From the IMG/VR virus record IMGVR_UViG_3300005663_003096: a stretch of 26,468 nucleotides of DNA; one strand, given 5' to 3'. Every line of letters starts with the position of its first letter. Position 1 is the first letter of the stretch. Of the stretch, positions 323-23,475 are shown one piece after another. The position numbers and the translations under genes were made by a program. The notes beneath the pieces were generated by a model, which was not told where the DNA came from, made no database searches, and was given only the letters and a program-made list of their open reading frames with translations. The DNA comes from a virus (taxonomy: Duplodnaviria > Heunggongvirae > Uroviricota > Caudoviricetes).

Positions 323-1582
323 ATGCAGATCCATTATCAGACCAAGGGCTTCATTCATCCTTCCAAGCCTGGACATCCCGAGCGCCCTCATCGTCAGATG
401 GCGGCCCTTTCGGGATTGCTTCAGCTGCCGGAGGGCAAGCTTAGCTGGCATGGGGCACAGCCGGTGGAATTGGTCGAGGCGGAGATTGCACATGATCCGA
501 ACTACCTGCGGATGATTTCGGAGGCGGACTTCAGCAGAACGCGCGCTCATCAGCTCGATGGCGGTGATACGGTATTGTCGGAGACAACCTTGGAGGCGGC
601 TCTGACAGCCTTGGGCGGCGCCCGGTCGGCTACAGCTCAGATCATGTCGGGCAAGACTTCTACGGGTTTCGTTGTCGCCCGGCCGCCGGGCCATCACGCC
701 ACCAAAAACAGCGGCATGGGCTTTTGCCTTCTGGGCACAGCAGCCTGGGCCGCACTGGATGCGCGCAATCGCCACGGGGCGCGGGTTGCGCTCATTGATC
801 CCGATCTGCACCATGGTAACGGTTCGCAGAATATCCTTTGGGATGAACCAGATACTCTCTTCGCCTCCACCCATGAAAAGGGCAATTGGCCGGGCAGCGG
901 ACAGCCTGAAGAGACCGGCGGAATGGGCCAAATCATCAACGTGCCGCTGGACAAGGGAAGCGGCAGCGCCACGATGCGCGAGGCCTGGGCGGACATCTTT
1001 GACCGGGTGGCAGAGTTCGGCCCGGATCTGATCATCGTCTCTGCAGGGTTTGATGCCCATGGCGACGACCCGCTTTCGGGTCTCAACTGGACGATGGAGG
1101 ATTACAGCTGGTTCGGCAAGCGTCTGGCAGAGCTCGCAGATGAGGTCTGTCATGGCCGGGTTCTGTCGATCCTTGAAGGCGGCTACGACCTGCAAGTCCT
1201 CAAGCATGGGATCGCCGCTTTTTCAGCGGAGCTGACCGAGCTTGATGACAAGAGCACCTCACCGGGGCTGGTGCCCGACACCGATCTCATGGGATGGCGC
1301 GCGCCGCATCTTGGCGGCTACAGCAACATGCCGCATCCCGGGCAGGAGGCGCTCAAAGTTACCAAGGTGGGCGGACGGCTCTGGATCGAGGAAACGGCCA
1401 CCGGTCAGTTTCTCTACACTGTGCCGGAGTTCGTGAAGCTGATCAGCCGTGACCCTCTTACGCATTTGGTCCGGGAGGCCAATGCGCTCGGCCAGCTGCC
1501 GATCGATATGATCATTCGACTGGAAGCGGAAGCCAAACGGGTCGCGGGGTTCAACCCCGGCCGGTCGAACGATTTTTCATGA
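323..1582 (+). CDS. Zn-dependent histone-deacetylase-family (AcuC/AphA-like) amidohydrolase with a ~100-aa C-terminal extension
   Basis: Motifs HPERP, RPPGHHA, GFC, DPDLHHGNGSQ, STH..PGSG, NVPL, SAGFDAH..DPL and LEGGY are all intact. RBS AAAGGA precedes the ATG. Confidence 0.95.
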   Translation: MQIHYQTKGFIHPSKPGHPERPHRQMAALSGLLQLPEGKLSWHGAQPVELVEAEIAHDPNYLRMISEADFSRTRAHQLDGGDTVLSETTLEAALTALGGARSATAQIMSGKTSTGFVVARPPGHHATKNSGMGFCLLGTAAWAALDARNRHGARVALIDPDLHHGNGSQNILWDEPDTLFASTHEKGNWPGSGQPEETGGMGQIINVPLDKGSGSATMREAWADIFDRVAEFGPDLIIVSAGFDAHGDDPLSGLNWTMEDYSWFGKRLAELADEVCHGRVLSILEGGYDLQVLKHGIAAFSAELTELDDKSTSPGLVPDTDLMGWRAPHLGGYSNMPHPGQEALKVTKVGGRLWIEETATGQFLYTVPEFVKLISRDPLTHLVREANALGQLPIDMIIRLEAEAKRVAGFNPGRSNDFS

Positions 1583-2191
1583 TGCAATCTGCAACCTGCA
1601 ACGGGCCTCATGGAACCGCTCAGCGAGGATCGCATAGCGCTTAAATACTGGGGGGAAGGCCGTGAGATAATCACGGGCCGCCCTGCCCTGCAGTCCTGGC
1701 GTTGCGGTGAAGGTAGTCCCTTCGGGGAATTGATCCGCCGTAAGATCGAGGCCTTGGTTCCAGTAATGGTTTGCCAGTGTGCCGTCGGGGCGCCGCGCAC
1801 GTCCGCGGATCACGGGCATGGCCGTCATGTCATTCACCAGTAGCGCAGTTGCGGCCGCCTGCCCCCGCGATGGTGTGTCTTTTGTCCATTCGCTGCCATG
1901 CGCGGTATCCTCATCCCAGGCCGCGCGGATCAGATCGGCCATGTCGTCAAACGGCGTATAGCCCAGACAGTCGAGATATTCTTTCTGCGTTACCCAAACG
2001 TATGAGATCGGCTTTCCGGTCTCGGCAGCGGCGCGCTCGGCCATTGCTCCGAGCAATGCGACCCCCTTGGTGCCATGCAGCTCTTCATAGACATCCATGA
2101 CCAGATGCCCCTCTTGGAAGAGCGCCTGCTCGCAGGTGCGGCTGCGGTTGCCGATGATCATCAAGGGCGCGCTGTCTGACAGAATGCTCAT
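1577..2191 (-). CDS. Unknown N-terminal domain fused to a YunG-like domain (GQC changed to GQA)
   Basis: WTKDTPSRGQAAATALLVND...HYWN...DLTADQF resembles the YunG-type pattern W..NP.RGQC.VTALVV.D...H..N...DLT..QF (from memory). Start moved to ATG 2191 because the longer ORF overlaps the promoter-like motif at 2221-2248. Confidence 0.65.
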   Translation of the reverse strand: MSILSDSAPLMIIGNRSRTCEQALFQEGHLVMDVYEELHGTKGVALLGAMAERAAAETGKPISYVWVTQKEYLDCLGYTPFDDMADLIRAAWDEDTAHGSEWTKDTPSRGQAAATALLVNDMTAMPVIRGRARRPDGTLANHYWNQGLDLTADQFPEGTTFTATPGLQGRAARDYLTAFPPVFKRYAILAERFHEARCRLQIAS

Positions 2192-2220
2192 GGTTTTCCA
2201 ATCTAAGTTAACGCGTTGTC

Positions 2221-2248
2221 CAAATATGACAAACCTAGTTTTTCGCAA
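2221..2248 (-). promoter_or_regulatory. TTGCGA-N16-TA promoter-like motif facing the YunG-like gene
   Basis: Minus strand reads TTGCGAAAAACTAGGTTTGTCATATTTG, about 30 nt upstream of ATG 2191. Confidence 0.6.
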
Positions 2249-2332
2249 TGTTCTATCTTGCAATCCCTGAGTGCAACAGGAATATTATTCACAAAGCGGC
2301 GGGCGTTCCGCGGCAAGACAAGGATTTCATGA

Positions 2333-3061
2333 GTGCATTCGACGACCAGCTACGACGAAACGCGTGCAGCCCGGATTGATGCCGGCCTGAAGAAATACAT
2401 GAACAACGTCTATGGGATGATGTCCCTGGGTACCTTCGTGACCTTCGCGACAGCGTGGTACATCTATACGACCGAAGAACTGCTCAAAGTCTTCTTCAAT
2501 CCCGAGACATTGTCGCCAACGGGTTTGGGCTGGTTCGCCATTTTCGCGCCATTGCTGATGGTGATCCTGTTGTGGATGATCGAGCGGCCCTCCTCCCCTT
2601 TCGTGCTGAAGATGTTCTTTGCGCTCTTTGCGGCGTTGATGGGCATTTCGATGACCTCCATCTTCCTGTCCTTCGAGATCGGGTCGATCGCAAACACCTT
2701 TCTGATCACCTCGGCCGCCTTCGCCGGTCTGTCTCTCTGGGGCTATACGACAAAGAAGGATCTCACCGGTCTCGGTGCATTCTGCTTCATGGCATTGTTT
2801 GGGTTGATCGCAGCCTCGGTGCTGAGCCTGTTCATTCAGTCGACAGCATTTGAATTTGCAGTCAATCTGGCGGGCGTACTGATCTTTGCGGGCCTTACGG
2901 CCTATGACACCCAGCACATCAAGACCGAGTATGTGAACCAGATTCATTCATCCTGCGATGATGAGATCGAGAAGTCGGCCGTTATGGGGGCTCTTGAGCT
3001 CTACCTGGACTTCATCAACCTCTTTTTGCGCATTCTCGCGGCGACCGGTAAGAAGAAGTAG
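2333..3061 (+). CDS. yccA: Bax inhibitor-1/YccA-family membrane protein
   Basis: About 7 hydrophobic segments. Motifs ID.GL..YM..VYG.M, F.IT..AFAGLSL.GYTTKKDL, GLTAYDTQ.IK and GALELYLDFINLFL are present. GTG start lies 8 nt after AAGGA. Confidence 0.93.
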   Translation: MHSTTSYDETRAARIDAGLKKYMNNVYGMMSLGTFVTFATAWYIYTTEELLKVFFNPETLSPTGLGWFAIFAPLLMVILLWMIERPSSPFVLKMFFALFAALMGISMTSIFLSFEIGSIANTFLITSAAFAGLSLWGYTTKKDLTGLGAFCFMALFGLIAASVLSLFIQSTAFEFAVNLAGVLIFAGLTAYDTQHIKTEYVNQIHSSCDDEIEKSAVMGALELYLDFINLFLRILAATGKKK

Positions 3062-3088
3062 CAACCCTGTTCCGAAGGGAATGCCCTG

Positions 3089-3118
3089 AAAGGCCCGGCG
3101 GTAGCCGGGCTTTTTTAT
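3089..3118 (+). terminator. Rho-independent terminator after yccA
   Basis: GCCCGGC-GGTA-GCCGGGC hairpin (3093-3110) followed by TTTTTT. Confidence 0.85.
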
Positions 3119-3180
3119 TGATACCCCGGACTAAATGCCGGGATATCCACAACTCATCCCTCTCGTTGATCCATCGCGCG

Positions 3181-3208
3181 TTGCGAAAAATGGCATTGTG
3201 CATATCCT
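3181..3208 (+). promoter_or_regulatory. TTGCGA-N16-TA promoter-like motif facing ftsH
   Basis: TTGCGAAAAATGGCATTGTGCATATCCT, about 40 nt upstream of ATG 3250. Confidence 0.6.
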
Positions 3209-3249
3209 CTGTTTGCGGCGAATAGGCCGTCCAAACTTCAGGATATGAC

Positions 3250-5184
3250 ATGGCCATTACTCCCCCGCGCAAACCCAAAACCCTCACGCTTGTCGCCTTT
3301 GTTGTCTCGCTGATCGTAAGTTTGACATGCACATATCTGCTCTTCGCTCCCGAAGAAACGAAGGAGTGGCCCTTCACGGCAGTGGATACGGCTGACGAAG
3401 TGCCACTGTCCCGGTTCAAAGATATTCTCACTGAAGATGGCGCCGGACGCCGGGTCGCTATCCTGAAAGACAAGATCCTGATCGAGATGGTCGAAGGCGC
3501 TGGCGATGTCATTTCCGAGCAGGAGCCCTTCTTTAATTTCTCGAAGTCAGGCGACGCCGAGGAGCTTGAGGCGGAGGGGGAAGAGATCGAGGGGGATGTC
3601 CTCTCTGTCGATATTCCGCGTTACAACGACCCATTCCTCAATGATCTGATCCGCGAGGACCTGGGCAGCTCGAACTTCGAGGTGGGTGTCTTTGCTGATG
3701 ACGCAGGATTGACCGGTTTGCAAAAGTCGTCGATCGCCTTCCAGATCCTCTTTGTCGTTCTGATCGCCTTCATGGTGTTGAAAATGATGGGCGTGGGTGG
3801 CAGCAGCTTTGGCACTGAACGCGGGTATTCCATCATCCAGCACAAGGACCTTCCGGTAGGTCTGAAGGATGTTGCAGGCCTCGATTCAGCACGCGAGGGT
3901 GTCGAAGAGGTTATCGGCCTGCTGCGCGATGAAGGCGATGTAGGTATGGCCGGCGGCCGCCTGCCCCGCGGTATGCTGCTTGATGGCCCTCCGGGCACCG
4001 GCAAAACCTTGATGGCGCGTGCCATGGCCAAGGAAGCCGGGGTGAATTTCATCTCGATCGACGCTTCTTCCTTGAACCAGATGTTCGTGGGCCTTGGCGC
4101 CATGAAGATCCGCAGCATCTTCCGCAAAGCCCGCAAACTTGCGCCCTGCATCATCTTCATCGATGAGATCGACGCCATGGGCCGGGCCCGTGGGTCTTCG
4201 GACAGCTCCGGGGCACGCGAAAGCGATGCCACACTTAACGCCCTGCTCACTGAGCTTGATGGATTTGATGCGCGTGCCGGCATCTTCATCATCGCGGCCA
4301 CCAACCGCGCGGAAATCCTTGATCCCGCGCTGACCCGCCCGGGCCGGATCGACCGTAAGATCACCCTGACCCTGCCCGATATCAAAGCACGCGAAGAGAT
4401 CCTGGCCGTACACTGCCGCGACAAAACCCTGGGGGAGGACGTCAATCTCCATGCCATCGCAGCTACAGTGTTTCAGACCTCAGGTGCTGAACTTGAGAAC
4501 CTGGTCAACGAGGCGGCCCTGGCGGCCGGCCGCGAAGGGCGCAAGGATATCCTCATGGAGGATTTCACCACTGCTCGCGACAGGCTTCTCCTGCCTCAGT
4601 CCGGCGGCAGCATCAAACTTCTGGAAGACGAGCGTCAGTTGACGGCCGTACATGAAGCAGGGCACGCGGTCATTGCCTTGGGGTCTGAGCACTCCGACCC
4701 GGTCGAGAAAGTCACGATCACGCCGCAGGGCGCGGCCATGGGCTTCGTGTTGCAGTCTCCTGAACGGGACCGCGTCTTCGAGACAGTGGCGCGCCTCAAG
4801 GCCCGGTTGCGGGTGGCTGTTGCCGGGCGCGAGGCCGAGCGTCTGATCTTTGGGCCTGACATGATCACCACCGGTGCGGCCTCTGACATCCGCCAGGCCA
4901 CGCAGATCGCGCGCGCCATGGTTACGACCTATGGCATGTCCGAGCTGGGCTTCATGGTCATCGACCCGAAAGATCCGACACTCTTTGATATGAACAACCC
5001 GCCCTCCCGCGTCATCGCGAAGATCATCGATGAGGCGATCGACGATGTCCGCATGGAGCTGAAGGAGCGGCGCGAAGGGCTGGATCGTCTGACCGACGCC
5101 CTGCTGGAAACCGAGACCATTTCTGGTGTGCGGGCACGTGAGATCGTCGAGGGAAATATGAAGGGGGCGTTGTCTGCTGCCTAA
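3250..5184 (+). CDS. ftsH: ATP-dependent zinc metalloprotease FtsH (divergent copy)
   Basis: Two N-terminal TM segments, Walker A GPPGTGKT, pore loop MFVG, Walker B IIFIDEID, SRH ATNR..ILDPAL.RPGRIDR, Zn motif HEAGH and peptidase M41 motif GAASDI. Confidence 0.96.
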   Translation: MAITPPRKPKTLTLVAFVVSLIVSLTCTYLLFAPEETKEWPFTAVDTADEVPLSRFKDILTEDGAGRRVAILKDKILIEMVEGAGDVISEQEPFFNFSKSGDAEELEAEGEEIEGDVLSVDIPRYNDPFLNDLIREDLGSSNFEVGVFADDAGLTGLQKSSIAFQILFVVLIAFMVLKMMGVGGSSFGTERGYSIIQHKDLPVGLKDVAGLDSAREGVEEVIGLLRDEGDVGMAGGRLPRGMLLDGPPGTGKTLMARAMAKEAGVNFISIDASSLNQMFVGLGAMKIRSIFRKARKLAPCIIFIDEIDAMGRARGSSDSSGARESDATLNALLTELDGFDARAGIFIIAATNRAEILDPALTRPGRIDRKITLTLPDIKAREEILAVHCRDKTLGEDVNLHAIAATVFQTSGAELENLVNEAALAAGREGRKDILMEDFTTARDRLLLPQSGGSIKLLEDERQLTAVHEAGHAVIALGSEHSDPVEKVTITPQGAAMGFVLQSPERDRVFETVARLKARLRVAVAGREAERLIFGPDMITTGAASDIRQATQIARAMVTTYGMSELGFMVIDPKDPTLFDMNNPPSRVIAKIIDEAIDDVRMELKERREGLDRLTDALLETETISGVRAREIVEGNMKGALSAA

Positions 5185-9070: not shown

Positions 9071-9265
9071 AGGAGTGCGGCTATTAGGTCCGAGGGCCTG
9101 TTGACGCCACTGTAACGCGTTGCGAAAACCAAGCGAAAGCTAGGGTCGGTCTCATTCTGGGGGTTATCCACAATTAAGCCTCTTGGGCTGCATGGAAGTG
9201 AAGCTTTCGAGCGGCTAGATTTGCGAATAACGGCGCAAGAAGCGATACCTACAGATGGAGCACCC

Positions 9266-11273: not shown

Positions 11274-12143
11274 CTACTTCAAAGAGCGTGTGCTTTTTTG
11301 GAGCTTCTTCATCTTGAGGACAGCGAAGGCTTCCTGCTCACGCAACCTCCGGATCTGTGTCTTATACTCATCCTGAGTGATCTCACCGCGCAGACGACGA
11401 AGCTTCAGAATGGACTCGGCATCACGATGATCTGCGATTTTGCTGCGCATGCCGTCCAATTTCTCACGGCTCTCCTGAACCTTATTGTCAAGATCGACAG
11501 TGAGGGGCGGGACAGCTACCGGCGGCAATGCGACAGGAGGGAGTGGAAGCGGTGGGACGGTTACGTCAGGCGTGTCGGAGGTGCTCTCATCGCTTGATCC
11601 GCTATTCGACTCTTTAGCTGTGTCGCCATCTTCAGTGGATCCTGTGGGGTCGCTTGTGTCAGGTGCTGTCCCATTCTGATCGGTCGAGCCGTCAGAATCA
11701 TCTTCCGGTCCCATTTCGCGGTCATCATCTTCCTCGGCGGCCTCTTCTTCCGCCTCTTCGGCTTCTTTAGCCGCTTCCTCGGCGGCCTCTTCTTCCGCCT
11801 CTTCGGCTTCTTTAGCCGCTTCCTCGGCGGCTTTCTCAGCCTCTTTAGCAGCCTTCTCGGCTTCCTTCGCCGCCTTCTCGGCTTCCTTCGCCGCCTCTTT
11901 AGCGGCCTTCTCGGCTTCCTTCTCAGCTTTTTCGGCGTCCTTAGCAGCCTTCTCGGCTTCTTTTTCAGCTTCCTTCGCAGCCTTTTTGTCCTTCTTGCCT
12001 TCTTTGCCAGACTTGGAAGCAGCAAGGGTAACGAATGAAGGCAGAGTGGTGAAACTATGTGCTGAGGTGATATTGGCGGCGAAGCTGGGTGTCGTCACCA
12101 AGCAGAATGTCATAGCAATTGCGATACGTGATACCGAGTTCAT
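11274..12143 (-). CDS. Secreted or periplasmic low-complexity protein: (K/E)EAEKAA helical repeats, acidic and Pro-rich linker, SHOCT-like C-terminus
   Basis: AAGGAG RBS before ATG 12143. Signal peptide ends ...TPSFAA. C-terminal LRRLRGEITQDEYKTQIRRL. Confidence 0.8.
   Translation of the reverse strand: MNSVSRIAIAMTFCLVTTPSFAANITSAHSFTTLPSFVTLAASKSGKEGKKDKKAAKEAEKEAEKAAKDAEKAEKEAEKAAKEAAKEAEKAAKEAEKAAKEAEKAAEEAAKEAEEAEEEAAEEAAKEAEEAEEEAAEEDDDREMGPEDDSDGSTDQNGTAPDTSDPTGSTEDGDTAKESNSGSSDESTSDTPDVTVPPLPLPPVALPPVAVPPLTVDLDNKVQESREKLDGMRSKIADHRDAESILKLRRLRGEITQDEYKTQIRRLREQEAFAVLKMKKLQKSTRSLK
11729..11831. repeat. Exact 45-bp tandem repeat (2 full copies plus a partial), intragenic
   Basis: Unit CTTCCTCGGCGGCCTCTTCTTCCGCCTCTTCGGCTTCTTTAGCCG starts at 11729, 11774 and 11819. 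It encodes a 15-aa AAEEAAKEAEEAEEE-type unit. Confidence 0.95.
11851..11895. repeat. Exact 21-bp tandem repeat (2 copies), intragenic
   Basis: GCCTTCTCGGCTTCCTTCGCC at 11851 and 11872, encoding AKEAEKA heptads. Confidence 0.9.
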
Positions 12144-12385
12144 GTGGGATCTCCTTACGAGAAGATGCATCTTTAAGGTATAACTAGAATTTTCGCAAAC
12201 GGTTCTATCTCATTTGCGTGAGAATCGACGTAACGCGAGGTTGCGGCTGCAAACCGGGCGGCGACGTGGTGGTTTGACCATATAAATAATGAAAGATTGA
12301 GCCTATTAGCGGTTTTGCGAAAAATCGGCTTGCTAGTCTGTTTCCAGTATGTCAGAAAGTTTATGAAAGCCAAAAGGAGATGTTT

Positions 12386-13600
12386 ATGGTTTCGCCTGTT
12401 TTAAGAGGCATCAGTTGTTCGGACTACCGCGCAACTTTAGCAGATCTCGAAGAAGATGGATGGTCGATCAGCAAAACCAATGGAGGCCATCTAAAGCTAG
12501 AGCACCCAAAGGCCAGCAAAGCTATTTTCGGTCCATGCTCCCCATCGGATTATCGCTCCAGGCACAATGTAGTTAGGAAATGCAATATCGCGATCGGCGA
12601 AGCAGCACGAGAAGAGAAAGTCTTCGGTCCAGCTCCCAAACAAAAGGAACTATCCGACCGCGAGTTCACCAGCATCCTGAAGAGCAGCAAGAAAATGCGA
12701 AAAACAAACCGTCAGAAGCATGTGCCGACACCGAGCCACTTCCTTACAGATGCTGCCTCACCCGCGGATCCAGCTACGCCGAAGCGCAAGCTCGGCACAC
12801 TTGCCCTGCCCGCATCCAAACAGGCCGTAAAGGCCAGTGCAGAAATCGCATCATCGCCCATGCAGGCGGTTGCGAAAAAGCTGAATATTACCAGCGCGAC
12901 AAATCAGAAAGCGCCACCTCAGAAGAATAAGTCGGCGCCTACCCTCTCCAACGACAAAGACAAGGACACCAATACCATGCTCGCTTCCGTTTCCCCTACA
13001 CCAGCCCCCGCGCAGCCTCAGGCCCCGGCTCACACATCCACACCCGCACCGCAGCCTGTCTCCAGGAAGCCCGATCCTCGTCAGGCAGGTTCCACCGCCA
13101 TTCCGTCGATCTCCGCCGACGTTCTTGCGCTTGCAATGAAAATCACATCCGGCGAGATGATGCAGGTCGAAGTGACGGCTGATATGGTTGGCCAGACGCT
13201 CTACTACGATGGTCAGATCGTCCTGTCGGGCGCGGTGACCTCGAAGCCTGCGAAGTCTCTGTCGGTGGTGCCTTCTGCGACAGCAGCAGCGCCTGCGGCG
13301 ACCCCCGCTCCTATGCCTGCCGCGGCAAGCGATACGTCGCACTCCTCTGCCGTTGCGACCAGGGGTCTCTCTCAGAATGAAGCGATCACGTCGACCATCC
13401 TCGAAGCGCTGAAGGTTCTCGGCCCCGAACTGGTGACATTCAAGGAATTGACCCATGCGACCCTGCCGGATCTGCCCTATAAAAGCTTTAATTCGGCGCG
13501 CTCCTCCCTGCCTCTTCACGTCAACCGCATGATCGCAAGCGGCATGATCGAGGAAGGGACCAAGGACAACCAGAAGGCCTACCGCGTTAAGGCGTCCTAA
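12386..13600 (+). CDS. HicA-like N-terminal domain, low-complexity linker, small central domain and C-terminal winged-helix-like domain
   Basis: LEEDGWSISKTNGGHLKLEHP...FGPCSPSDYRSRHN fits the HicA/YcfA dsRBD-like pattern GW......G.H..L.H...TPSD.R..N. ITSTILEALKVLG...TFKEL...RMIASGMIEE...YRV fits a wHTH. AAGGAG is better spaced to ATG 12386 than to 12380. Confidence 0.75.
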   Translation: MVSPVLRGISCSDYRATLADLEEDGWSISKTNGGHLKLEHPKASKAIFGPCSPSDYRSRHNVVRKCNIAIGEAAREEKVFGPAPKQKELSDREFTSILKSSKKMRKTNRQKHVPTPSHFLTDAASPADPATPKRKLGTLALPASKQAVKASAEIASSPMQAVAKKLNITSATNQKAPPQKNKSAPTLSNDKDKDTNTMLASVSPTPAPAQPQAPAHTSTPAPQPVSRKPDPRQAGSTAIPSISADVLALAMKITSGEMMQVEVTADMVGQTLYYDGQIVLSGAVTSKPAKSLSVVPSATAAAPAATPAPMPAAASDTSHSSAVATRGLSQNEAITSTILEALKVLGPELVTFKELTHATLPDLPYKSFNSARSSLPLHVNRMIASGMIEEGTKDNQKAYRVKAS

Positions 13601-13619
13601 ACTCTCAAGATATGTGGAT

Positions 13620-13651
13620 AAGGGGAGGGTGCGTGTCGCCCTCCCCTTTTT
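13620..13651 (+). terminator. Rho-independent terminator after the HicA-like fusion gene
   Basis: AAGGGGAGGGTG-CGTGT-CGCCCTCCCCTT followed by a T-tract. Confidence 0.85.
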
Positions 13652-13654
13652 ATT

Positions 13655-13682
13655 GTGCGAAAATGAAAAACCAACATATTTA
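13655..13682 (+). promoter_or_regulatory. Variant promoter-like motif GTGCGA-N16-TA
   Basis: GTGCGAAAATGAAAAACCAACATATTTA lies directly after the terminator and about 17 nt before GTG 13699. Confidence 0.55.
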
Positions 13683-16398: not shown

Positions 16399-17661
16399 AT
16401 GCCGACAATTAACGAAGCATTCAAAACCCATGGCATCCGTGCCGAATATGAAGGCATGCCTGCGATGGTCGTGCCGGTAACGCCGGAGCTTGCAGAAACG
16501 CTCGACCAGGAAAAGGTTAAAAAGCCTGCAATTTCTGGCAATATGCTCTTGAGCTGGAACAACGGCGATGAGCGCAAAGGTTTGGTTATCAACAGCCTCG
16601 CAGCCAATGATATCAATCTCCTGATCAAACGCCAGGACGGCAGCGACAAGAAGGTCAATGCCACCAGCATGACAGATGCAGCGCTTCGGGCGCTCCGTCT
16701 GCGCAATGCGCACCGCGAAGATGTGGCTCAGGTCGAAGCAGCAAATGCCAAGGCTCAGGAAGAATATCAGGAAGCGGTCGATCGCGGCGAAAATCCCGCC
16801 GAGCCTGAAGAGCGCAAAACCGAATTCACTGATGCATCCTTCAAGGGCATCGACGGTCTGGCGACATGTCTCCGCAGCGTGATGATTGGGATCAAGGAAG
16901 ATGTGCTTTCCGATATCAAGGTCAAAGGCAAAGCAGACTCGTTCCTTGGCGAAATGCGTGAACTGACGCGCGACGAGCTGACCAGCTCTGATAAAGCCAA
17001 AGCACTTGAGGCGCGCCGCCTGAAAGCTGAAATCGCGATGCTTGCTCCCGAACATGAGAAAGCTTCCGCCACTATCATGCCGGCCGCTTATGAAGGTGAC
17101 GGTGAGGCCGCTCGCGATCTGATGGATGCTATGCCTCATGATCCGGAAGGTCTGAGTGCCGCACAGCAGTCCGTTATGGCGCAGGCAGGCAACATTGCTT
17201 TGGTTAACCGCCTCTTCTCGGTTGCGACAACCACGCCGGTCATGGCTGTCGAAAAGCGCGCCTTGTCGCATACTGGCTTTGCAACCTTCGCACAGAATCT
17301 CGCCAAGTACGAGAATAAGGATGCGAGCGAAATGGTTCTTCCCCGCATGGCAGCCGTGACCGGCGATGCTATGGAAGCCTATAAATGGCAGGGTAAGATT
17401 TATACCAAAGATGGTGCAGATATCCTTCTGATGCGCGATGAATATGCCGCCTTCGCCTACGCCTGGGACACTGAGAGCCGCGTCGGTGATATCAACATCG
17501 AAGCGTCGGTACTGACAAACCTGACCCAGGCTGATGTGCCGACTGAAGAAGAGCTGGAAGAGCTGAAGGAAATCCATGAAGCCCTGAAGTTCGACAACGG
17601 TGCCGAAGTGAACTTCGATTGGGACGATGAGCCCGAGGAAGAAGACGTCTTCGAAGCCTGA
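16399..17661 (+). CDS. Hypothetical protein (420 aa) with an acidic C-terminal tail
   Basis: Strong RBS TAGGAG, its own promoter-like motif and terminator. Tail ...FDWDDEPEEEDVFEA. Confidence 0.88.
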   Translation: MPTINEAFKTHGIRAEYEGMPAMVVPVTPELAETLDQEKVKKPAISGNMLLSWNNGDERKGLVINSLAANDINLLIKRQDGSDKKVNATSMTDAALRALRLRNAHREDVAQVEAANAKAQEEYQEAVDRGENPAEPEERKTEFTDASFKGIDGLATCLRSVMIGIKEDVLSDIKVKGKADSFLGEMRELTRDELTSSDKAKALEARRLKAEIAMLAPEHEKASATIMPAAYEGDGEAARDLMDAMPHDPEGLSAAQQSVMAQAGNIALVNRLFSVATTTPVMAVEKRALSHTGFATFAQNLAKYENKDASEMVLPRMAAVTGDAMEAYKWQGKIYTKDGADILLMRDEYAAFAYAWDTESRVGDINIEASVLTNLTQADVPTEEELEELKEIHEALKFDNGAEVNFDWDDEPEEEDVFEA

Positions 17662-18554: not shown

Positions 18555-19304
18555 TCAGCCGAGATGCTGTCCTGCATCCGCGCAGATGAGCTGTCCCGTA
18601 ACGCCAGGCGCGTCGAGAAAATAGCCCAGCGCGCCGGTGATGTCCTCAAGGTTTGACCCGCGTCCCAGGATCGTGCCCGTGCGCTGATCTGCATATTCCT
18701 GATCTGTCAGGTCATCGCTTTTCAGCGTGGGGCCAGGGCCAATCCCATTGACGCGGATAGTTGGTCCCAGGGCCTGGGCTGTGGTCTTTGTCATGCCCCA
18801 GAGGGCGACCTTGGCCATCGTATAGGTCATGAATTCCGGTGTAAGGTTGCGGACACGCTGATCGATCATATTGACGATCAGCCCCGCAGCACGCATTTCC
18901 CCTCTCTCATCCGTGATCCGCTCCAGACCTTGGTTGGCCATGGCTTGGGTCAACACAAAGGGTGCGCGCAGGTTGCTGCCCATCGACCGGTCCCAGCTCT
19001 CACGCGTGGCCGTGGTGATCTCATCGGGCTCAAAGATGGAGGCGTTATTCACCAGGCAGGTAATGGGCCCACCGAGCGCCTCAGCCGCGCGCGGCAGAAG
19101 GGCTTGGGTCTGATCTTCATCGAGAAGATCCGCCTGAACGGCCACAGCCTGGCGGCCCATCTCTTTGATCTCATCGACGACCGACTGCGCGTCTACTTCC
19201 GAGCTGCGATAATGCACGGCGACGTCATATCCGCGGCCAGCGAGATAGAGCGCCATTGCACGGCCGAGGCGCACGCCGGCTCCGGTAACCAGGGCATTTT
19301 TCAT
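18555..19304 (-). CDS. Short-chain dehydrogenase/reductase, pteridine-reductase (PTR1/FolM)-like
   Basis: VTGAGVRLG (TGxxxRLG), VAVHY, LVNNASIF, N..AP..L, NMIDQRV, YTMAK (YxxxK) and VNGIGPG. Confidence 0.92.
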   Translation of the reverse strand: MKNALVTGAGVRLGRAMALYLAGRGYDVAVHYRSSEVDAQSVVDEIKEMGRQAVAVQADLLDEDQTQALLPRAAEALGGPITCLVNNASIFEPDEITTATRESWDRSMGSNLRAPFVLTQAMANQGLERITDERGEMRAAGLIVNMIDQRVRNLTPEFMTYTMAKVALWGMTKTTAQALGPTIRVNGIGPGPTLKSDDLTDQEYADQRTGTILGRGSNLEDITGALGYFLDAPGVTGQLICADAGQHLG

Positions 19305-19411
19305 AACGTCGCGCCTTTCATTTGTTGGTCATACTTTGGGCCGCATGTAGAGCAGCGGCGCGGGGCAGACAAGCAGCACTGCGGAGTTTCGCCACCCCTG
19401 CCCCGGTTAGA

Positions 19412-20923
19412 TCAGATGATGAAATTGGTCTCGTCAGTCAGATCGCTTTCTTGATCGTCTCCCATTTCTACGAGAAAACGCTCACCTGTTTCTTGCAGGC
19501 TCACCGAGAACATCGCCTCATCGTCGATCGTCACCTCGCTGATGTCGAGATCCGCAAAGCTGTCTACGCTCACCCCATCACCAAACTGGATAACGTCTTC
19601 TCCATCTGTGAAATCCTTGATAATATCGAGTTGCGCGTATTTTTCTGCGTCCGTTCCTTCCAAGTCGTCCCAGACCTGCAAATCGCCGCTGTCAAAGCGG
19701 TAGGTGTCCGCCCCTGCCCCGCCATATAGCGTATCAGTGCCCGAGCCTCCGGTCAGCGTGTCATTGCCGGTGCCGCCGCGGAGAAGGTCATCGCCGGATC
19801 CGCCTACGAGTTGATCGTCTTCAGAGCCCCCGTAGAGCGTGTCATCCCCGGCGCCACCGCGGACTTCGTCCATATCCATGCCCCCGGCGAGGTGATCATC
19901 GCCATTGCCGCCATAGATCGTGTCATTGCCCTTACCGGCATCGACGACATCGTCCCCATCGCCGGCGCGGAACAAGCCATCTGCATCGGGTGTCTTCTGA
20001 ACATCCCAGATCCAATCAGCACCATCGGTGCCTGCAATCGAGTCGTCCGTGTTCTTCATGACATTGATATCTTCGTCGAAAGTGCCGTGAGGCACGTAGT
20101 TCTGCTGGTCGATATAATCGACAACCGGCAGCGCAGACAGATCTTCGGGCATTTCAGAAAAATGCGTTTCAGCGCCGGCATGGCGCGCGCCTTCGAGCGC
20201 ATAGAGCCCTTGGTCTCCGAGGCGAAGCCATTGCTGATCGAGATACTCGACCACATCGATACCCTCAGGCAGATCGTGTAGATCCAGATCTTGCCCCTCA
20301 AGGACGATCATATCGCGGGTGATATCGAAGTCCTCGATACGGCCCAGGATCGGGCTGTTGAGTTGACCAATATTGTCAAACTCCACCGTATCATTGCCGG
20401 TGCCAGTATAAACGTGATGGCCGTCATAATTACTGTCATTGGTCAGATCGAGCACGATGCGATCGTCACCCTCCCCGCCCCCGACGTGGACCTGGCCAAA
20501 ACCCGGGATCGAGGAGATCAACGTGTCATCGCCATGACCGCCCCAAAGCTCGCTGTAACCCTCTGAGCCGTCCAATACGATAATGTCATCGCCGCCCAAC
20601 CCGCTGAACCGGTCTTCGCCGCCGTTGCCGAACATGATGTCTTTTGCACCAGTGCCCGAGATCCGCTCATCTGTTTCGGTGCCCTCAATCCTTTCCCCGG
20701 GGATGTCGCTGGTGAGATCGAGCGTCTCGATGACTGAAGTACCATCATCATAGGACCTGATATCGAAGCCATCCTCTTCCGGACCAGGTTCATCGGGATC
20801 AGGCTGCGTTGGATCTACGGGATCTGGATTTGTGGGATCCGAGGGGTCCGATGATTTACTGCTGGACCCGCCACTCATACCGAAGGCGGCCCCAAGGCCC
20901 AAAAGAATTAGTAGGAATTGCAT
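19412..20923 (-). CDS. RTX-type (GGxGxD) calcium-binding protein with an N-terminal hydrophobic anchor
   Basis: Many nonapeptide repeats in two blocks (GNGGEDRF, GLGGDD, AGKGNDTIYGGNGDDHL, GGAGDDTLYGGSEDD, GGTGNDTLTGGSGTDTLYGGAGAD). N-terminus MQFLLILLGLGAAFG followed by PD repeats. Confidence 0.92.
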   Translation of the reverse strand: MQFLLILLGLGAAFGMSGGSSSKSSDPSDPTNPDPVDPTQPDPDEPGPEEDGFDIRSYDDGTSVIETLDLTSDIPGERIEGTETDERISGTGAKDIMFGNGGEDRFSGLGGDDIIVLDGSEGYSELWGGHGDDTLISSIPGFGQVHVGGGEGDDRIVLDLTNDSNYDGHHVYTGTGNDTVEFDNIGQLNSPILGRIEDFDITRDMIVLEGQDLDLHDLPEGIDVVEYLDQQWLRLGDQGLYALEGARHAGAETHFSEMPEDLSALPVVDYIDQQNYVPHGTFDEDINVMKNTDDSIAGTDGADWIWDVQKTPDADGLFRAGDGDDVVDAGKGNDTIYGGNGDDHLAGGMDMDEVRGGAGDDTLYGGSEDDQLVGGSGDDLLRGGTGNDTLTGGSGTDTLYGGAGADTYRFDSGDLQVWDDLEGTDAEKYAQLDIIKDFTDGEDVIQFGDGVSVDSFADLDISEVTIDDEAMFSVSLQETGERFLVEMGDDQESDLTDETNFII

Positions 20924-20927
20924 TCTG

Positions 20928-21152
20928 TCATTCCGTCATTTGTTTGATTTTGGTCGTTGTGGCATTGAGCCAACGGCCCAGAAGCCCGCGGAGCATCTGG
21001 GCAGCCCCTCTGGGGCGGCAGAGCGCCTCCAGGCGTGCCATACGCTCCTCATGGGTGATCTCGCCCCGCTGATAAGCCAGGCGCGCCTCACGGGCGCCCA
21101 GCATCACTGCGTGCAGCCTTTGGGGCTGAGATAGGGTCTGGTGGTCATCCAC
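20928..21152 (-). CDS. Small hypothetical protein with a SHOCT-like motif
   Basis: RLAYQRGEITHEERMARLEAL. Sits 6 nt after the 52-aa gene and ends 4 nt before the RTX ATG. Start uncertain. Confidence 0.5.
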   Translation of the reverse strand: MDDHQTLSQPQRLHAVMLGAREARLAYQRGEITHEERMARLEALCRPRGAAQMLRGLLGRWLNATTTKIKQMTE

Positions 21153-21158
21153 TTGCTG

Positions 21159-21317
21159 TCAGCGCCCCTGAGTGGGGTTTGCGTGAATGATCCAAGCGAT
21201 CACCGCGAGGAGCATCCCGCAGACCATAAGGCCGGTGCCATGACCGGTCTCTGCGTTGTAGAGCCCGCCCCCTACGGAGATCATCGAGATGGCAGCGCCG
21301 GCGAGAAGATTGCTCAT
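21159..21317 (-). CDS. Small two-TM protein (52 aa), absent from the ORF track
   Basis: ATGA overlap with the MazG-like stop. Read by hand: MSNLLAGAAISMISVGGGLYNAETGHGTGLMVCGMLLAVIAWIIHANPTQGR. Confidence 0.65.
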   Translation of the reverse strand: MSNLLAGAAISMISVGGGLYNAETGHGTGLMVCGMLLAVIAWIIHANPTQGR

Positions 21318-21931
21318 GCCACCACCTTCAGTGTCTGATGGTGGGAATAGCGCATCTTGCGCGCCATGATCTCTTCATAGGCATCAGGCACATCTTCAAA
21401 GAAATCGTCCGGCAGAAAATGAACGGCGAGCCAGAAGTCGAAAAGGTCCAGCGTCAACTGCTGCCTGTTGTCCTGCTGCGGGAAATCGGGGTGATAACTG
21501 TCATAGCCGTGGCGCAGGGTCTTGCCCACGGTCTGAACGATCTTTGCTGCCCTGTTCGACAGGATGTGCAGCTGCTCCATCTCCGCCAGATCGACGCCGT
21601 TCACAACGATTGTATTGCCCATTTGCGACATCTCGATCAAAGCTTCGGAGTATGGGCTTACATAGGAAGATTCGTTTTTCGCAAAGTAGTTCGCGAAAGC
21701 CTCGATGCTGAGGTCCGCTTCCATGAACTCTGCGACGGCCAAGAGGTCGGCGACTTCCCGGCCGAGATCGGCGATATTGTCATCCAGCGCCCCTTCGAGA
21801 TTCTCCGAGTACGGACCATCTTGCAACATCTGGGTTGCCGACTGAACCACTTCCCCTGCTTCCTCGGAAAGCATGGCCAGGCGCTCGGTTTCTGCTGCTG
21901 TCAGTTTATTGAAATTCTCGTGCTTAGACAT
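21314..21931 (-). CDS. Tandem-duplicated MazG-like NTP pyrophosphohydrolase
   Basis: Repeat 1: LAMLSEEAGEVVQ...LGREVADLLAV (EExxE...ExxD). Repeat 2: LHILSNRAAKIVQTVGKTLRHGYDSYHP...LTLDLFDFWLAV. RBS AAAGGA. Confidence 0.8.
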   Translation of the reverse strand: MSKHENFNKLTAAETERLAMLSEEAGEVVQSATQMLQDGPYSENLEGALDDNIADLGREVADLLAVAEFMEADLSIEAFANYFAKNESSYVSPYSEALIEMSQMGNTIVVNGVDLAEMEQLHILSNRAAKIVQTVGKTLRHGYDSYHPDFPQQDNRQQLTLDLFDFWLAVHFLPDDFFEDVPDAYEEIMARKMRYSHHQTLKVVA

Positions 21932-21969
21932 ATTGATATCCTTTATTAAGTTCTGTGCTGCAAAGCATT

Positions 21970-23019
21970 TTAGGTGGTTTTCTGCTGCCGAAGGGCATCA
22001 GTGAGAGCTTCCGGAGAGACACGCTCTGCGGAGATGTAGAACAGCGGTCGACCGGTAAGGTCTGTATCGCCGGGCACGTTAAGGTAGGGCGTATCAAATC
22101 CCGGCCGGATGGTTCCCAGGAATGTCATGCCAAGACTGCGGAAGGCATTATAGGCCATGTCCGCAGTGATCTCTTTGATGTCGATCTGGATCCGGAAGGC
22201 TGTAACATCCTGGGACGCGGATCCAAGGACTGTGAAGAAACTGGAAATGCCCGGATCGAGAACCTCACTCGCCACGACCTCCGCCGATTGGGAAACCACT
22301 GGCACCACCTTGGTATGGGCGCCAAGGAGACGTGCTTTGACATCGCATTCGAGGGCTGCAACGACCCGTGCGGCGGGCACCAACCATGAAACGGCCATGG
22401 CTGCGGTCAATGTGGTGTCATCCTCTTCTGCAAACACGAGAACCGTTTTCGCATGCATGACCCCTGCCCTGCGCAGATCACGCTCGGCGACCAGATCTTC
22501 GGATCTAACATAGTGCAGCTCGCTGGTATCAAAGGCCGGAACCTTGGTGGTCATGAGAATGATGTCGCGGGGCTGCAGACCGCCTGCCAGTAGATCGATG
22601 ATCACGCGTTGAGTGGCCTTTGGGTGCAACCCGATGATGACCGTTTTGCCCTTTTCGGCGCTGTAATCGCCAAATCCATCCATGCGTTTCCTCCAATAGG
22701 CAACTGAGGTCTGAGAGACCTTTGCCAGTAAAACAGTGAAAAATGTGAGTGCGCCCGGAAAAAGCCATACCGAAACAAAGACCCTGCCGAGCTCGGTCGC
22801 TGGCGACAGGTCCCCATAGCCAATCGTGCTCGCCGTCGTCGAATAGAAGTAGATAAAGGTGCTGATACCCATCAGATGCATCTCGCCTGCCAGCCGCAGG
22901 CCGAGATAGGTCACCAGCATATGCGCGGCGGTGAGCAACCAGAAGACTTTCCAGTCGAGCTGGGCCACCGCTTGATAGGCGCGCGCGCCCATAATCTCGA
23001 TGAGGCGGAAAAGGACCAT
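21970..23019 (-). CDS. Two-TM potassium channel with a C-terminal RCK (TrkA-N-like) domain
   Basis: Pore helix and selectivity filter TTASTIGYGD flanked by TMs. RCK-like TVIIG...G..DL.RAG...A..V...DD.TL. Confidence 0.9.
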   Translation of the reverse strand: MVLFRLIEIMGARAYQAVAQLDWKVFWLLTAAHMLVTYLGLRLAGEMHLMGISTFIYFYSTTASTIGYGDLSPATELGRVFVSVWLFPGALTFFTVLLAKVSQTSVAYWRKRMDGFGDYSAEKGKTVIIGLHPKATQRVIIDLLAGGLQPRDIILMTTKVPAFDTSELHYVRSEDLVAERDLRRAGVMHAKTVLVFAEEDDTTLTAAMAVSWLVPAARVVAALECDVKARLLGAHTKVVPVVSQSAEVVASEVLDPGISSFFTVLGSASQDVTAFRIQIDIKEITADMAYNAFRSLGMTFLGTIRPGFDTPYLNVPGDTDLTGRPLFYISAERVSPEALTDALRQQKTT

Positions 23020-23326: not shown

Positions 23327-23475
23327 TTGCGAAAAAGCTACAGTTGAGCAATACCCAAGACTGATCTGGGCTGCAAGGCATTTGCGAAAAATGTACTAAT
23401 TTATCGTAATCCAGATTATACCCTAAGATATGTGGACAACCACCAAGCTGATCTTGCGATGATGGTTTGCGAAAA
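23327..23475 (+). promoter_or_regulatory. Three tandem TTGCGAAAA copies upstream of the CAP lipoprotein gene
   Basis: Copies start at 23327, 23382 and 23467 in a divergent intergenic region. Confidence 0.55.

Follow-up and report, generated by a model that had tools for sequence, protein, structure and literature searches.

HicB is the known neutraliser of HicA. What, then, would restrain the HicA domain of a 404-aa protein encoded in the window (the whole 26,468-nt stretch of DNA analysed here) by a gene with no HicB beside it? An initial annotation of this DNA had reported that no HicB gene lies on either side, and our searches bear this out, since neither the divergent gene upstream nor the membrane-protein gene downstream has a HicB match. 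The gene and the signals that frame it are as follows.

12374 to 12379, plus strand: Shine-Dalgarno sequence AAGGAG of the full-length product
12386 to 13600, plus strand: full-length coding sequence (long product), 404 aa, its frame kept in 37 aligned members of the family
13613 to 13621, minus strand: perfect DnaA-box 9-mer (TTATCCACA) directly 3' of the stop codon, invariant in the four close homologues that cover the site
13620 to 13655, plus strand: intrinsic terminator hairpin with T tail

The ORF starts at the conserved ATG 12386, an alternative ATG at 12380 being missing from three of four homologues, and an identical 404-aa protein is known from Sulfitobacter sp. 1A13353, on contigs of up to 426 kb, where it is annotated as hypothetical. 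The non-HicB neighbours, together with a hairpin of 12 pairs and a T tail 3' of the stop, make the gene look monocistronic; hairpins with differing stems also follow the gene in most homologous loci (L004, L007, L027, L028, L016 and L025). Short contigs of the gene occur in three RNA libraries, one of them spanning 12747-13041 and deeper than an upstream piece, though such contigs cannot reveal starts, strand or level. The divergent gene (11274-12143, minus strand) probably encodes a signal peptide, and its product has repeats of EAEKAAK type as well as an acidic tract; it is variable in length among homologues and missing in L004. A second perfect DnaA-box 9-mer lies at 9164-9172 (plus strand), making two in the window against 0.1 expected, each near a copy of the motif TGCGAAAA, and a DnaA-box-like AGATATGTGGACAA sits within a three-motif cluster at 23327-23475.

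We used a profile of the C-terminal half, run against 50%-identity representatives, to collect the family. This found 52 proteins, four of them spurious repeats; most of the others are 300-440 aa long with the same N-terminal HicA, and the family comprises at least 35 sequence clusters, mostly 20-35% identical. The common architecture is a HicA domain, a basic helix, a linker, a small central domain and a winged helix, with G25, W26, H35, G256, T264, M267 and G269 invariant in the 37 aligned members. Named hosts are Roseivivax halodurans, Gemmobacter caeni (a 446-kb contig) and Paracoccus sp. ME4 (a complete 535-kb plasmid), and the gene is single-copy in each genome, carried by Rhodobacteraceae replicons of roughly 450-650 kb. 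Neighbouring genes are common only to close relatives and none persists across distant loci, so the fusion gene has no partner that moves with it; searches of the complete Paracoccus ME4 genome, which carries the fusion, gave no match for either HicB family. On the G. caeni replicon there is a HicB match at L052:17480-18063 (G002:C2, about 377.5-378.1 kb), with a small HicA-like ORF upstream and a recombinase-like gene adjoining, about 225 kb from the fusion gene.

Searches of PLSDB with the whole gene or a neighbour gave no match, the plasmid family being missing there, and IMG/VR gave none for the gene; among 401 family genomes (five candidates scored per genome) the gene was found only in the seed genome. 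A 420-aa protein of no known family (16399-17661, plus strand), conserved on the G. caeni and Paracoccus replicons at 30-35%, is a usable marker of the plasmid family. Cargo in the window (323-5184 and 18555-23019) includes a histone-deacetylase-family gene, YunG, a Bax inhibitor-1 family gene, an FtsH-like AAA protease, an SDR, an RTX calcium-binding-repeat protein and a potassium-channel-like gene.

The fusion protein is built from four parts that could be placed on the DNA.

12395 to 12610, plus strand: HicA (dsRBD-like) domain, residues about 4-75, from profile, alignment and model, with the His35 codon at 12488-12490
12656 to 12718, plus strand: basic Lys/Arg-rich helix, residues 91-111, modelled as a helix with pLDDT 78-89
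13097 to 13237, plus strand: central domain, residues 238-284, of no known family (helix then strands; T-x-x-M-x-G invariant; mildly acidic)
13367 to 13597, plus strand: winged helix-turn-helix domain, residues 328-404, pLDDT above 90, Z about 10

The HicA-type signature noticed at the N-terminus proved to be real. The PADLOC HicA-like profile matches the 404-aa protein at E=7e-8 and 34 of the 37 members, while the Pfam HicA_toxin match (PF07927, residues 19-53; E=0.004) falls below the curated cut-off at 17.7 bits against 27, the best family member reaching E=6e-5. Residues G33-G34-H35 align without gaps to G22-S23-H24 of Burkholderia pseudomallei HicA, the toxicity of which depends on two residues, Gly22 and His24 (PMC3969222). 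The AlphaFold2 model, made with 37 homologues, predicts a dsRBD-like alpha-beta-beta-beta-alpha fold (pLDDT above 90 for residues 11-70), and Foldseek matches it to HicA 6g26 with probability 1.0 and an rmsd of 2.3 A over 57 residues (E=0.017); the initial annotation had staked its reading on the N-terminus having a HicA/dsRBD fold, and the model does match one. A PD-(D/E)XK nuclease match in Pfam was found in none of the 37 members. The position of the catalytic His is His in 37/37, G25 and W26 are likewise invariant, and pN in the HicA domain is far below pS; the Gly33 position, equivalent to Gly22, is Gly in the window's protein and in only 23/37 members. Such retention of the catalytic His suggests an active nuclease that would need control.

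After HicA comes the linker, put at 170 aa by the initial annotation; it is indeed present, at about 160 aa, and opens with the conserved basic helix (the best 15-residue window after HicA has a median charge of +7 across the family). Apart from this helix, the model is disordered outside residues 11-70, 331-400 (also above 90) and 241-280 (about 80). The last of these falls in the central domain. No HicB match in Pfam was found in 44 members at E up to 1, and hhalign of the central domain against one HicB gave a probability of 0.3%, with a modelled topology that is helix-first, though the domain was modelled within the whole protein, so that a remote HicB relation is less firmly excluded. An atlas search with the domain gave no match. 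Its I-T-x-x-M-V-G-x-T stretch (within 13097-13237) resembles a twice-repeated motif of ribosomal protein uS19, a likeness confined to 13-residue stretches (best E=0.006, summed over two of them) that may be convergence. The wHTH-like C-terminus was also recognised correctly, residues 326-404 resembling many winged-helix domains at Z about 10, with linker histones and Fur among the closest folds.

Mean identity within the family is 41% for HicA, 41% for the central domain, 21% for the winged helix and 17% for the linker, the winged helix thus being the least conserved domain (24% in its recognition helix); median charges are +5 for HicA and -3 for the central domain. Some members depart from the common pattern: P0035 has two tandem central domains, and the divergent P0045 and P0046 retain the His but have neither the TPSD motif nor the internal Met trace. 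P0003 has a TAG stop early in the winged helix (L012:3150-3152), at a sense codon in its relatives and with the frame running on beyond, which is either a sequencing error or a genuine truncation.

Another way to view this gene is as two coding sequences sharing one frame, since the linker contains what appears to be a second ribosome entry site.

12962 to 12966, plus strand: internal Shine-Dalgarno sequence AAGGA, in an A-rich, weakly folding context
12977 to 13600, plus strand: predicted internally initiated short product of 207 aa (Met198 onward), with a conserved start and stand-alone counterparts of 180-197 aa

The AAGGA, the 10-nt spacing, the in-frame ATG and the 207-aa length are all as first described; the methionine then called Met200 is the right residue, counted from ATG 12380, and is Met198 from the real start. 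Whether this Met and its ribosome-binding site are conserved was a point on which the initial annotation could have failed, and we find them conserved far beyond chance. Among five close homologues neither AGGAC nor ATGCTCG at the internal start varies, in an indel-rich stretch and with four-fold codon sites invariant only 6% of the time, and AGGA is retained despite a Lys-to-Gln change. Across 14 full-length loci with DNA, 13 have an in-frame ATG with AAGGA, AGGA or GGAG placed 51-88 codons before the central motif, giving predicted short products of 170-220 aa; the fourteenth (Roseivivax) has the ATG in the same place and an A-rich leader, with no clear Shine-Dalgarno sequence.

When each linker's own codons were shuffled, the internal Shine-Dalgarno plus ATG was expected in 0.5 of 10 lineages, against nine observed, and none of 300,000 simulations reached nine. 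Likewise, the peptide trace [KRQE][ED]-x(2-4)-M is present in 20/39 proteins against 5.0 expected from residue shuffles. On the G. caeni replicon the combination of a Shine-Dalgarno sequence and weakly folding context is found at 0.3% of 1,887 ordinary internal ATGs, compared with 18% of called starts. Thresholds for these controls were chosen after the data had been seen and the lineages are partly dependent, but the excess of observed over expected is wide enough to withstand both cautions. Thus, comparison of homologues indicates that the internal ribosome-binding site and ATG are under selection. Folding is weaker around the internal start than around the first (-3.8 versus -11.2 kcal/mol, neither departing from shuffles), the internal Shine-Dalgarno sequence is also the weaker one (-3.6 versus -6.2), and GC drops before the internal ATG in most homologues. 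An internal promoter was sought as a sigma-70 consensus site or a conserved -10 after the internal motif copy, and neither was found.

Consistent with a separate short product, its counterpart exists elsewhere as a gene. The initial annotation had proposed looking for homologues split at the linker, and the C-terminal part does occur in this form: two stand-alone genes (L029 and L030, of 180 and 190-197 aa) encode the central domain and winged helix only and sit inside longer contigs. L030 has a divergent gene upstream and L029 an unrelated 255-aa one; neither locus has a HicA match. This count leaves out P0040, P0064, P0067 and P0073, for which no DNA check was possible. Two further candidates were rejected as stand-alone short forms, P0024 (206 aa, beginning at the internal Met) being a contig-end artefact and P0071 (L033) a full fusion for which the gene caller had picked the internal ATG as start. 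A word-limited, and therefore weak, search for stand-alone N-terminal halves (57-207 aa) gave none at E of 1e-8 or better. The unit predicted to be released from the internal start thus matches naturally occurring genes in both size and domain content, and stand-alone units with no HicA nearby show that the C-terminal unit has a job of its own. The long form is likewise under selection, as the upstream linker keeps its frame in aligned members and has pN below pS. In view of this in-frame linker under purifying selection, alongside the conserved internal start and the stand-alone counterparts, we consider it probable that both the long product and the short 207-aa product are made.

What the two products might do is best approached through Rpn, in which the full-length form is toxic and is blocked by a C-terminal protein made from an internal start (PMC10400941). 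By analogy, we tentatively favour a self-contained, plasmid-borne gene-within-gene toxin-antitoxin, in which the short product would neutralise the long one. The antitoxin or repressor role that the initial annotation suggested for the short product is plausible, as is toxicity of the HicA domain. The sequence shows three components of such a system: a single transcription unit that has two ribosome entry sites, both conserved; a HicA fold that keeps the catalytic His; and a C-terminal unit able to stand as its own gene. The long product (HicA, basic helix and C-terminal unit) would be a latent RNase, and the short product (C-terminal unit only) would be made in excess from the open internal start. 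The short product would co-assemble with the long one via the shared central domain and so keep HicA off, either by dilution of HicA in mixed oligomers or by covering of the basic HicA face with the short product's acidic surface, and the winged helices would bind DNA, probably the gene's own promoter. If synthesis stopped, on plasmid loss or phage take-over, the short product would be lost first, and the freed HicA would give plasmid maintenance or abortive infection.

This toxin-antitoxin reading is favoured by the invariance of His35 (37/37) and the low pN of HicA; by the missing HicB and conserved neighbour, the lack of HicB in Paracoccus ME4 and the terminator after the stop; by the internal start in 9/10 lineages, the trace in 20/39 proteins and the rarity of a Shine-Dalgarno sequence with open context at ordinary ATGs; by the equal conservation (41% each) and opposite charge (+5, -3) of HicA and the central domain; by C-terminal units found without HicA (L029, L030); and by the Rpn precedent and the more weakly folded internal start region. 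It is weakened by the lack of similarity between the central domain and HicB, by stand-alone C-terminal units having their own job, by the non-toxicity of the orphan phage protein LeBron gp82, by Gly at the Gly22 position in only 23/37 members, and by the lack of a conserved internal promoter and the weaker internal Shine-Dalgarno sequence. A complex prediction for HicA (1-82) with two C-terminal units scored 0.00, which is no answer and evidence in neither direction.

An alternative role for the short product is suggested by the cis-motif of these replicons, of which the gene and its leader have three copies.

12314 to 12324, plus strand: TTTGCGAAAAA motif upstream of the gene, with a conserved TTGC after 5 nt, invariant in five close homologues
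12695 to 12704, plus strand: in-gene motif copy ATGCGAAAAA, one of only two invariant runs of at least 8 nt in the coding sequence (five homologues)
12870 to 12880, plus strand: in-gene motif copy TTGCGAAAAAG, 107 nt before the internal ATG, invariant in five homologues even across a Val-to-Ile change

Both copies within the linker had been noted initially and are present. In the form TTGCGAAAA the motif has 15 copies in the window, where 0.36 would be expected, and TGCGAAAA marks the replicon family across genera (window-wide; G002:C2, L034-L056; G003:C2). It is concentrated on the gene-bearing replicon, with 82 copies on the 446-kb G. caeni contig and 27 on the Paracoccus plasmid; copies are mostly intergenic, are rare between convergent genes, and in a minority of cases lie 4-6 nt upstream of a TTG(A/C/T) -35-like hexamer. 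Among the other genomes of the 401, the one richest in the motif has its copies scattered, with many close to the start of a contig; neither the gene nor a plasmid marker has a match there. Within genes, sense-strand copies are about 20-fold enriched plasmid-wide (34 against 1.7 expected; antisense 3 against 0.6), a chromosome control having no in-gene sense-strand copies, and several lie near gene midpoints. As the two in-gene copies are the only invariant runs of at least 8 nt in the coding sequence, they are under selection at the DNA or RNA level. The suggestion that intergenic DNA became the linker finds no support in them: the sense-strand enrichment is plasmid-wide, so the copies were dropped as evidence of such relics, and the tree gives no direction. 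Three distant homologues retain the internal ATG without in-gene motif copies. Literature searches on this architecture or motif found nothing relevant.

The main rival reading, which we think less likely, makes the gene a two-isoform plasmid regulator and no toxin-antitoxin. The short product would then be a DNA-binding regulator or nucleoid-type protein, perhaps recognising TGCGAAAA, and the long product would add HicA and the basic helix as a non-toxic arm that binds RNA or acts as a mild, locally tethered RNase, and so links DNA sites with transcript turnover. The motif lies at most 300 nt upstream of the gene in 9/10 lineages, and in stand-alone L030 it immediately precedes a TTGACC-17-TAGGAT promoter; each motif-rich replicon has one copy of the gene, stand-alone C-terminal units do without HicA, the nearest winged-helix folds include linker histones and Fur, and an orphan HicA-like protein is non-toxic. 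However, the winged helix is only 21% identical and its recognition helix 24%, yet the motif is identical across genera, and a catalytic His in 37/37 suggests an active nuclease requiring control. Both functions could be combined, the short winged-helix product being at once the first intragenic, non-HicB antitoxin for HicA and a plasmid-wide regulator binding TGCGAAAA; this is a long shot, which if true would link a toxin switch with the master regulator of a Rhodobacteraceae megaplasmid family not yet described.

Rather improbable, too, is a single self-inhibited fusion (CapRel- or EzeT-like, or like Gerdes class 11), in which the long product alone counts, its HicA being blocked in cis by the central domain, and the internal start is left over from a gene fusion. 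All near-length homologues are indeed fusions; the linker is long enough for fold-back, HicA-HicB-DNA-binding fusions have been described (PMC10865869), and the Met trace is missing in divergent P0045 and P0046 and several others. The tree is mostly unresolved and unrooted, with the two stand-alone genes ungrouped and a single clade not rejected (p-AU 0.079). Against a relic, a Shine-Dalgarno sequence and ATG without function would not last at 20-35% protein identity in an indel-rich linker with four-fold sites 6% invariant. The remaining idea, that the composition of a Lys/Asp-rich linker produced the internal start by accident, in an ordinary multidomain plasmid protein, draws on AAG-GAx codons spelling AAGGA in a Lys-rich, A-rich stretch but is very improbable and largely refuted, as shuffles of the linker's own codons and residues give 0.5/10 and 5/39 against 9/10 and 20/39, AGGA survives a Lys-to-Gln change, and in L033 the gene caller itself began the gene at the internal ATG.

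Proof of gene-within-gene antitoxins comes from one family (Rpn), and a second, unrelated case based on HicA would show a recurring design; HicA, if this is true, would gain a neutraliser other than HicB. The internal start was detectable from conservation alone, and the gene marks a poorly described family of Rhodobacteraceae replicons (roughly 450-650 kb) with its own cis-motif.

A 2024 survey lists 14 HicA contexts, none of which has this layout; its fused classes contain HicB or SMC domains and include none with an internal start (PMC10865869). Fused HicAB of Gerdes class 11 consists of HicA, a partial RNase H HicB and an RHH or Xre-HTH domain (PMC10865869), whereas here the middle domain lacks HicB similarity (helix-first, no profile match), a winged helix takes the place of the RHH or Xre-HTH domain, the linkers are long and disordered, and an internal start is conserved, a feature that PMC10865869 does not describe. 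Bicistronic HicAB (B. pseudomallei 6g26/4c26, E. coli) shares the dsRBD-like fold and the equivalents of Gly22 and His24 (G33, H35) but differs in having a hicB gene, the HicA here being one domain of a 404-aa protein and of the GGH...TPSD-R subtype. The nearest stand-alone HicA relatives found were Rhodobacter phage RcXuper gp155 and other phage proteins (30-45% over about 55-65 aa). Unlike the fusion, phage HicA-like proteins such as RcXuper gp155 and mycobacteriophage Amelie gp73 and LeBron gp82 (the latter two likened by published description, not alignment) are small and stand-alone; orphan LeBron gp82 is non-toxic (PMC13148394) and Amelie gp73 toxic, so toxicity differs among them. CapRel and EzeT likewise place a toxin domain and a candidate inhibitor within one chain, but their toxin chemistry differs and they act in cis as a single product (summarised in PMC10865869).

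The closest parallel is with Rpn (RpnL/RpnS; Zhong et al. 2023, PMC10400941). Both have an N-terminal nuclease-type toxin domain, an in-frame internal ribosome-binding site and ATG giving the C-terminal part as a separate (here predicted) protein, a mobile-element location, and a K-E/D-x-x-(x)-M peptide trace, which in RpnA is K-E-x-x-M (K240, E241, M244; PMC10400941). They differ in that the toxin domain is HicA (RNase fold) here and a PD-(D/E)XK DNase in Rpn, and that the short product here is 170-220 aa with a winged helix; in Rpn there is proof of neutralisation, of an internal promoter and of phage defence, while the present family is known from sequence. We conclude that the family falls outside class 11, classical HicAB and Rpn proper, but that it probably works like Rpn.
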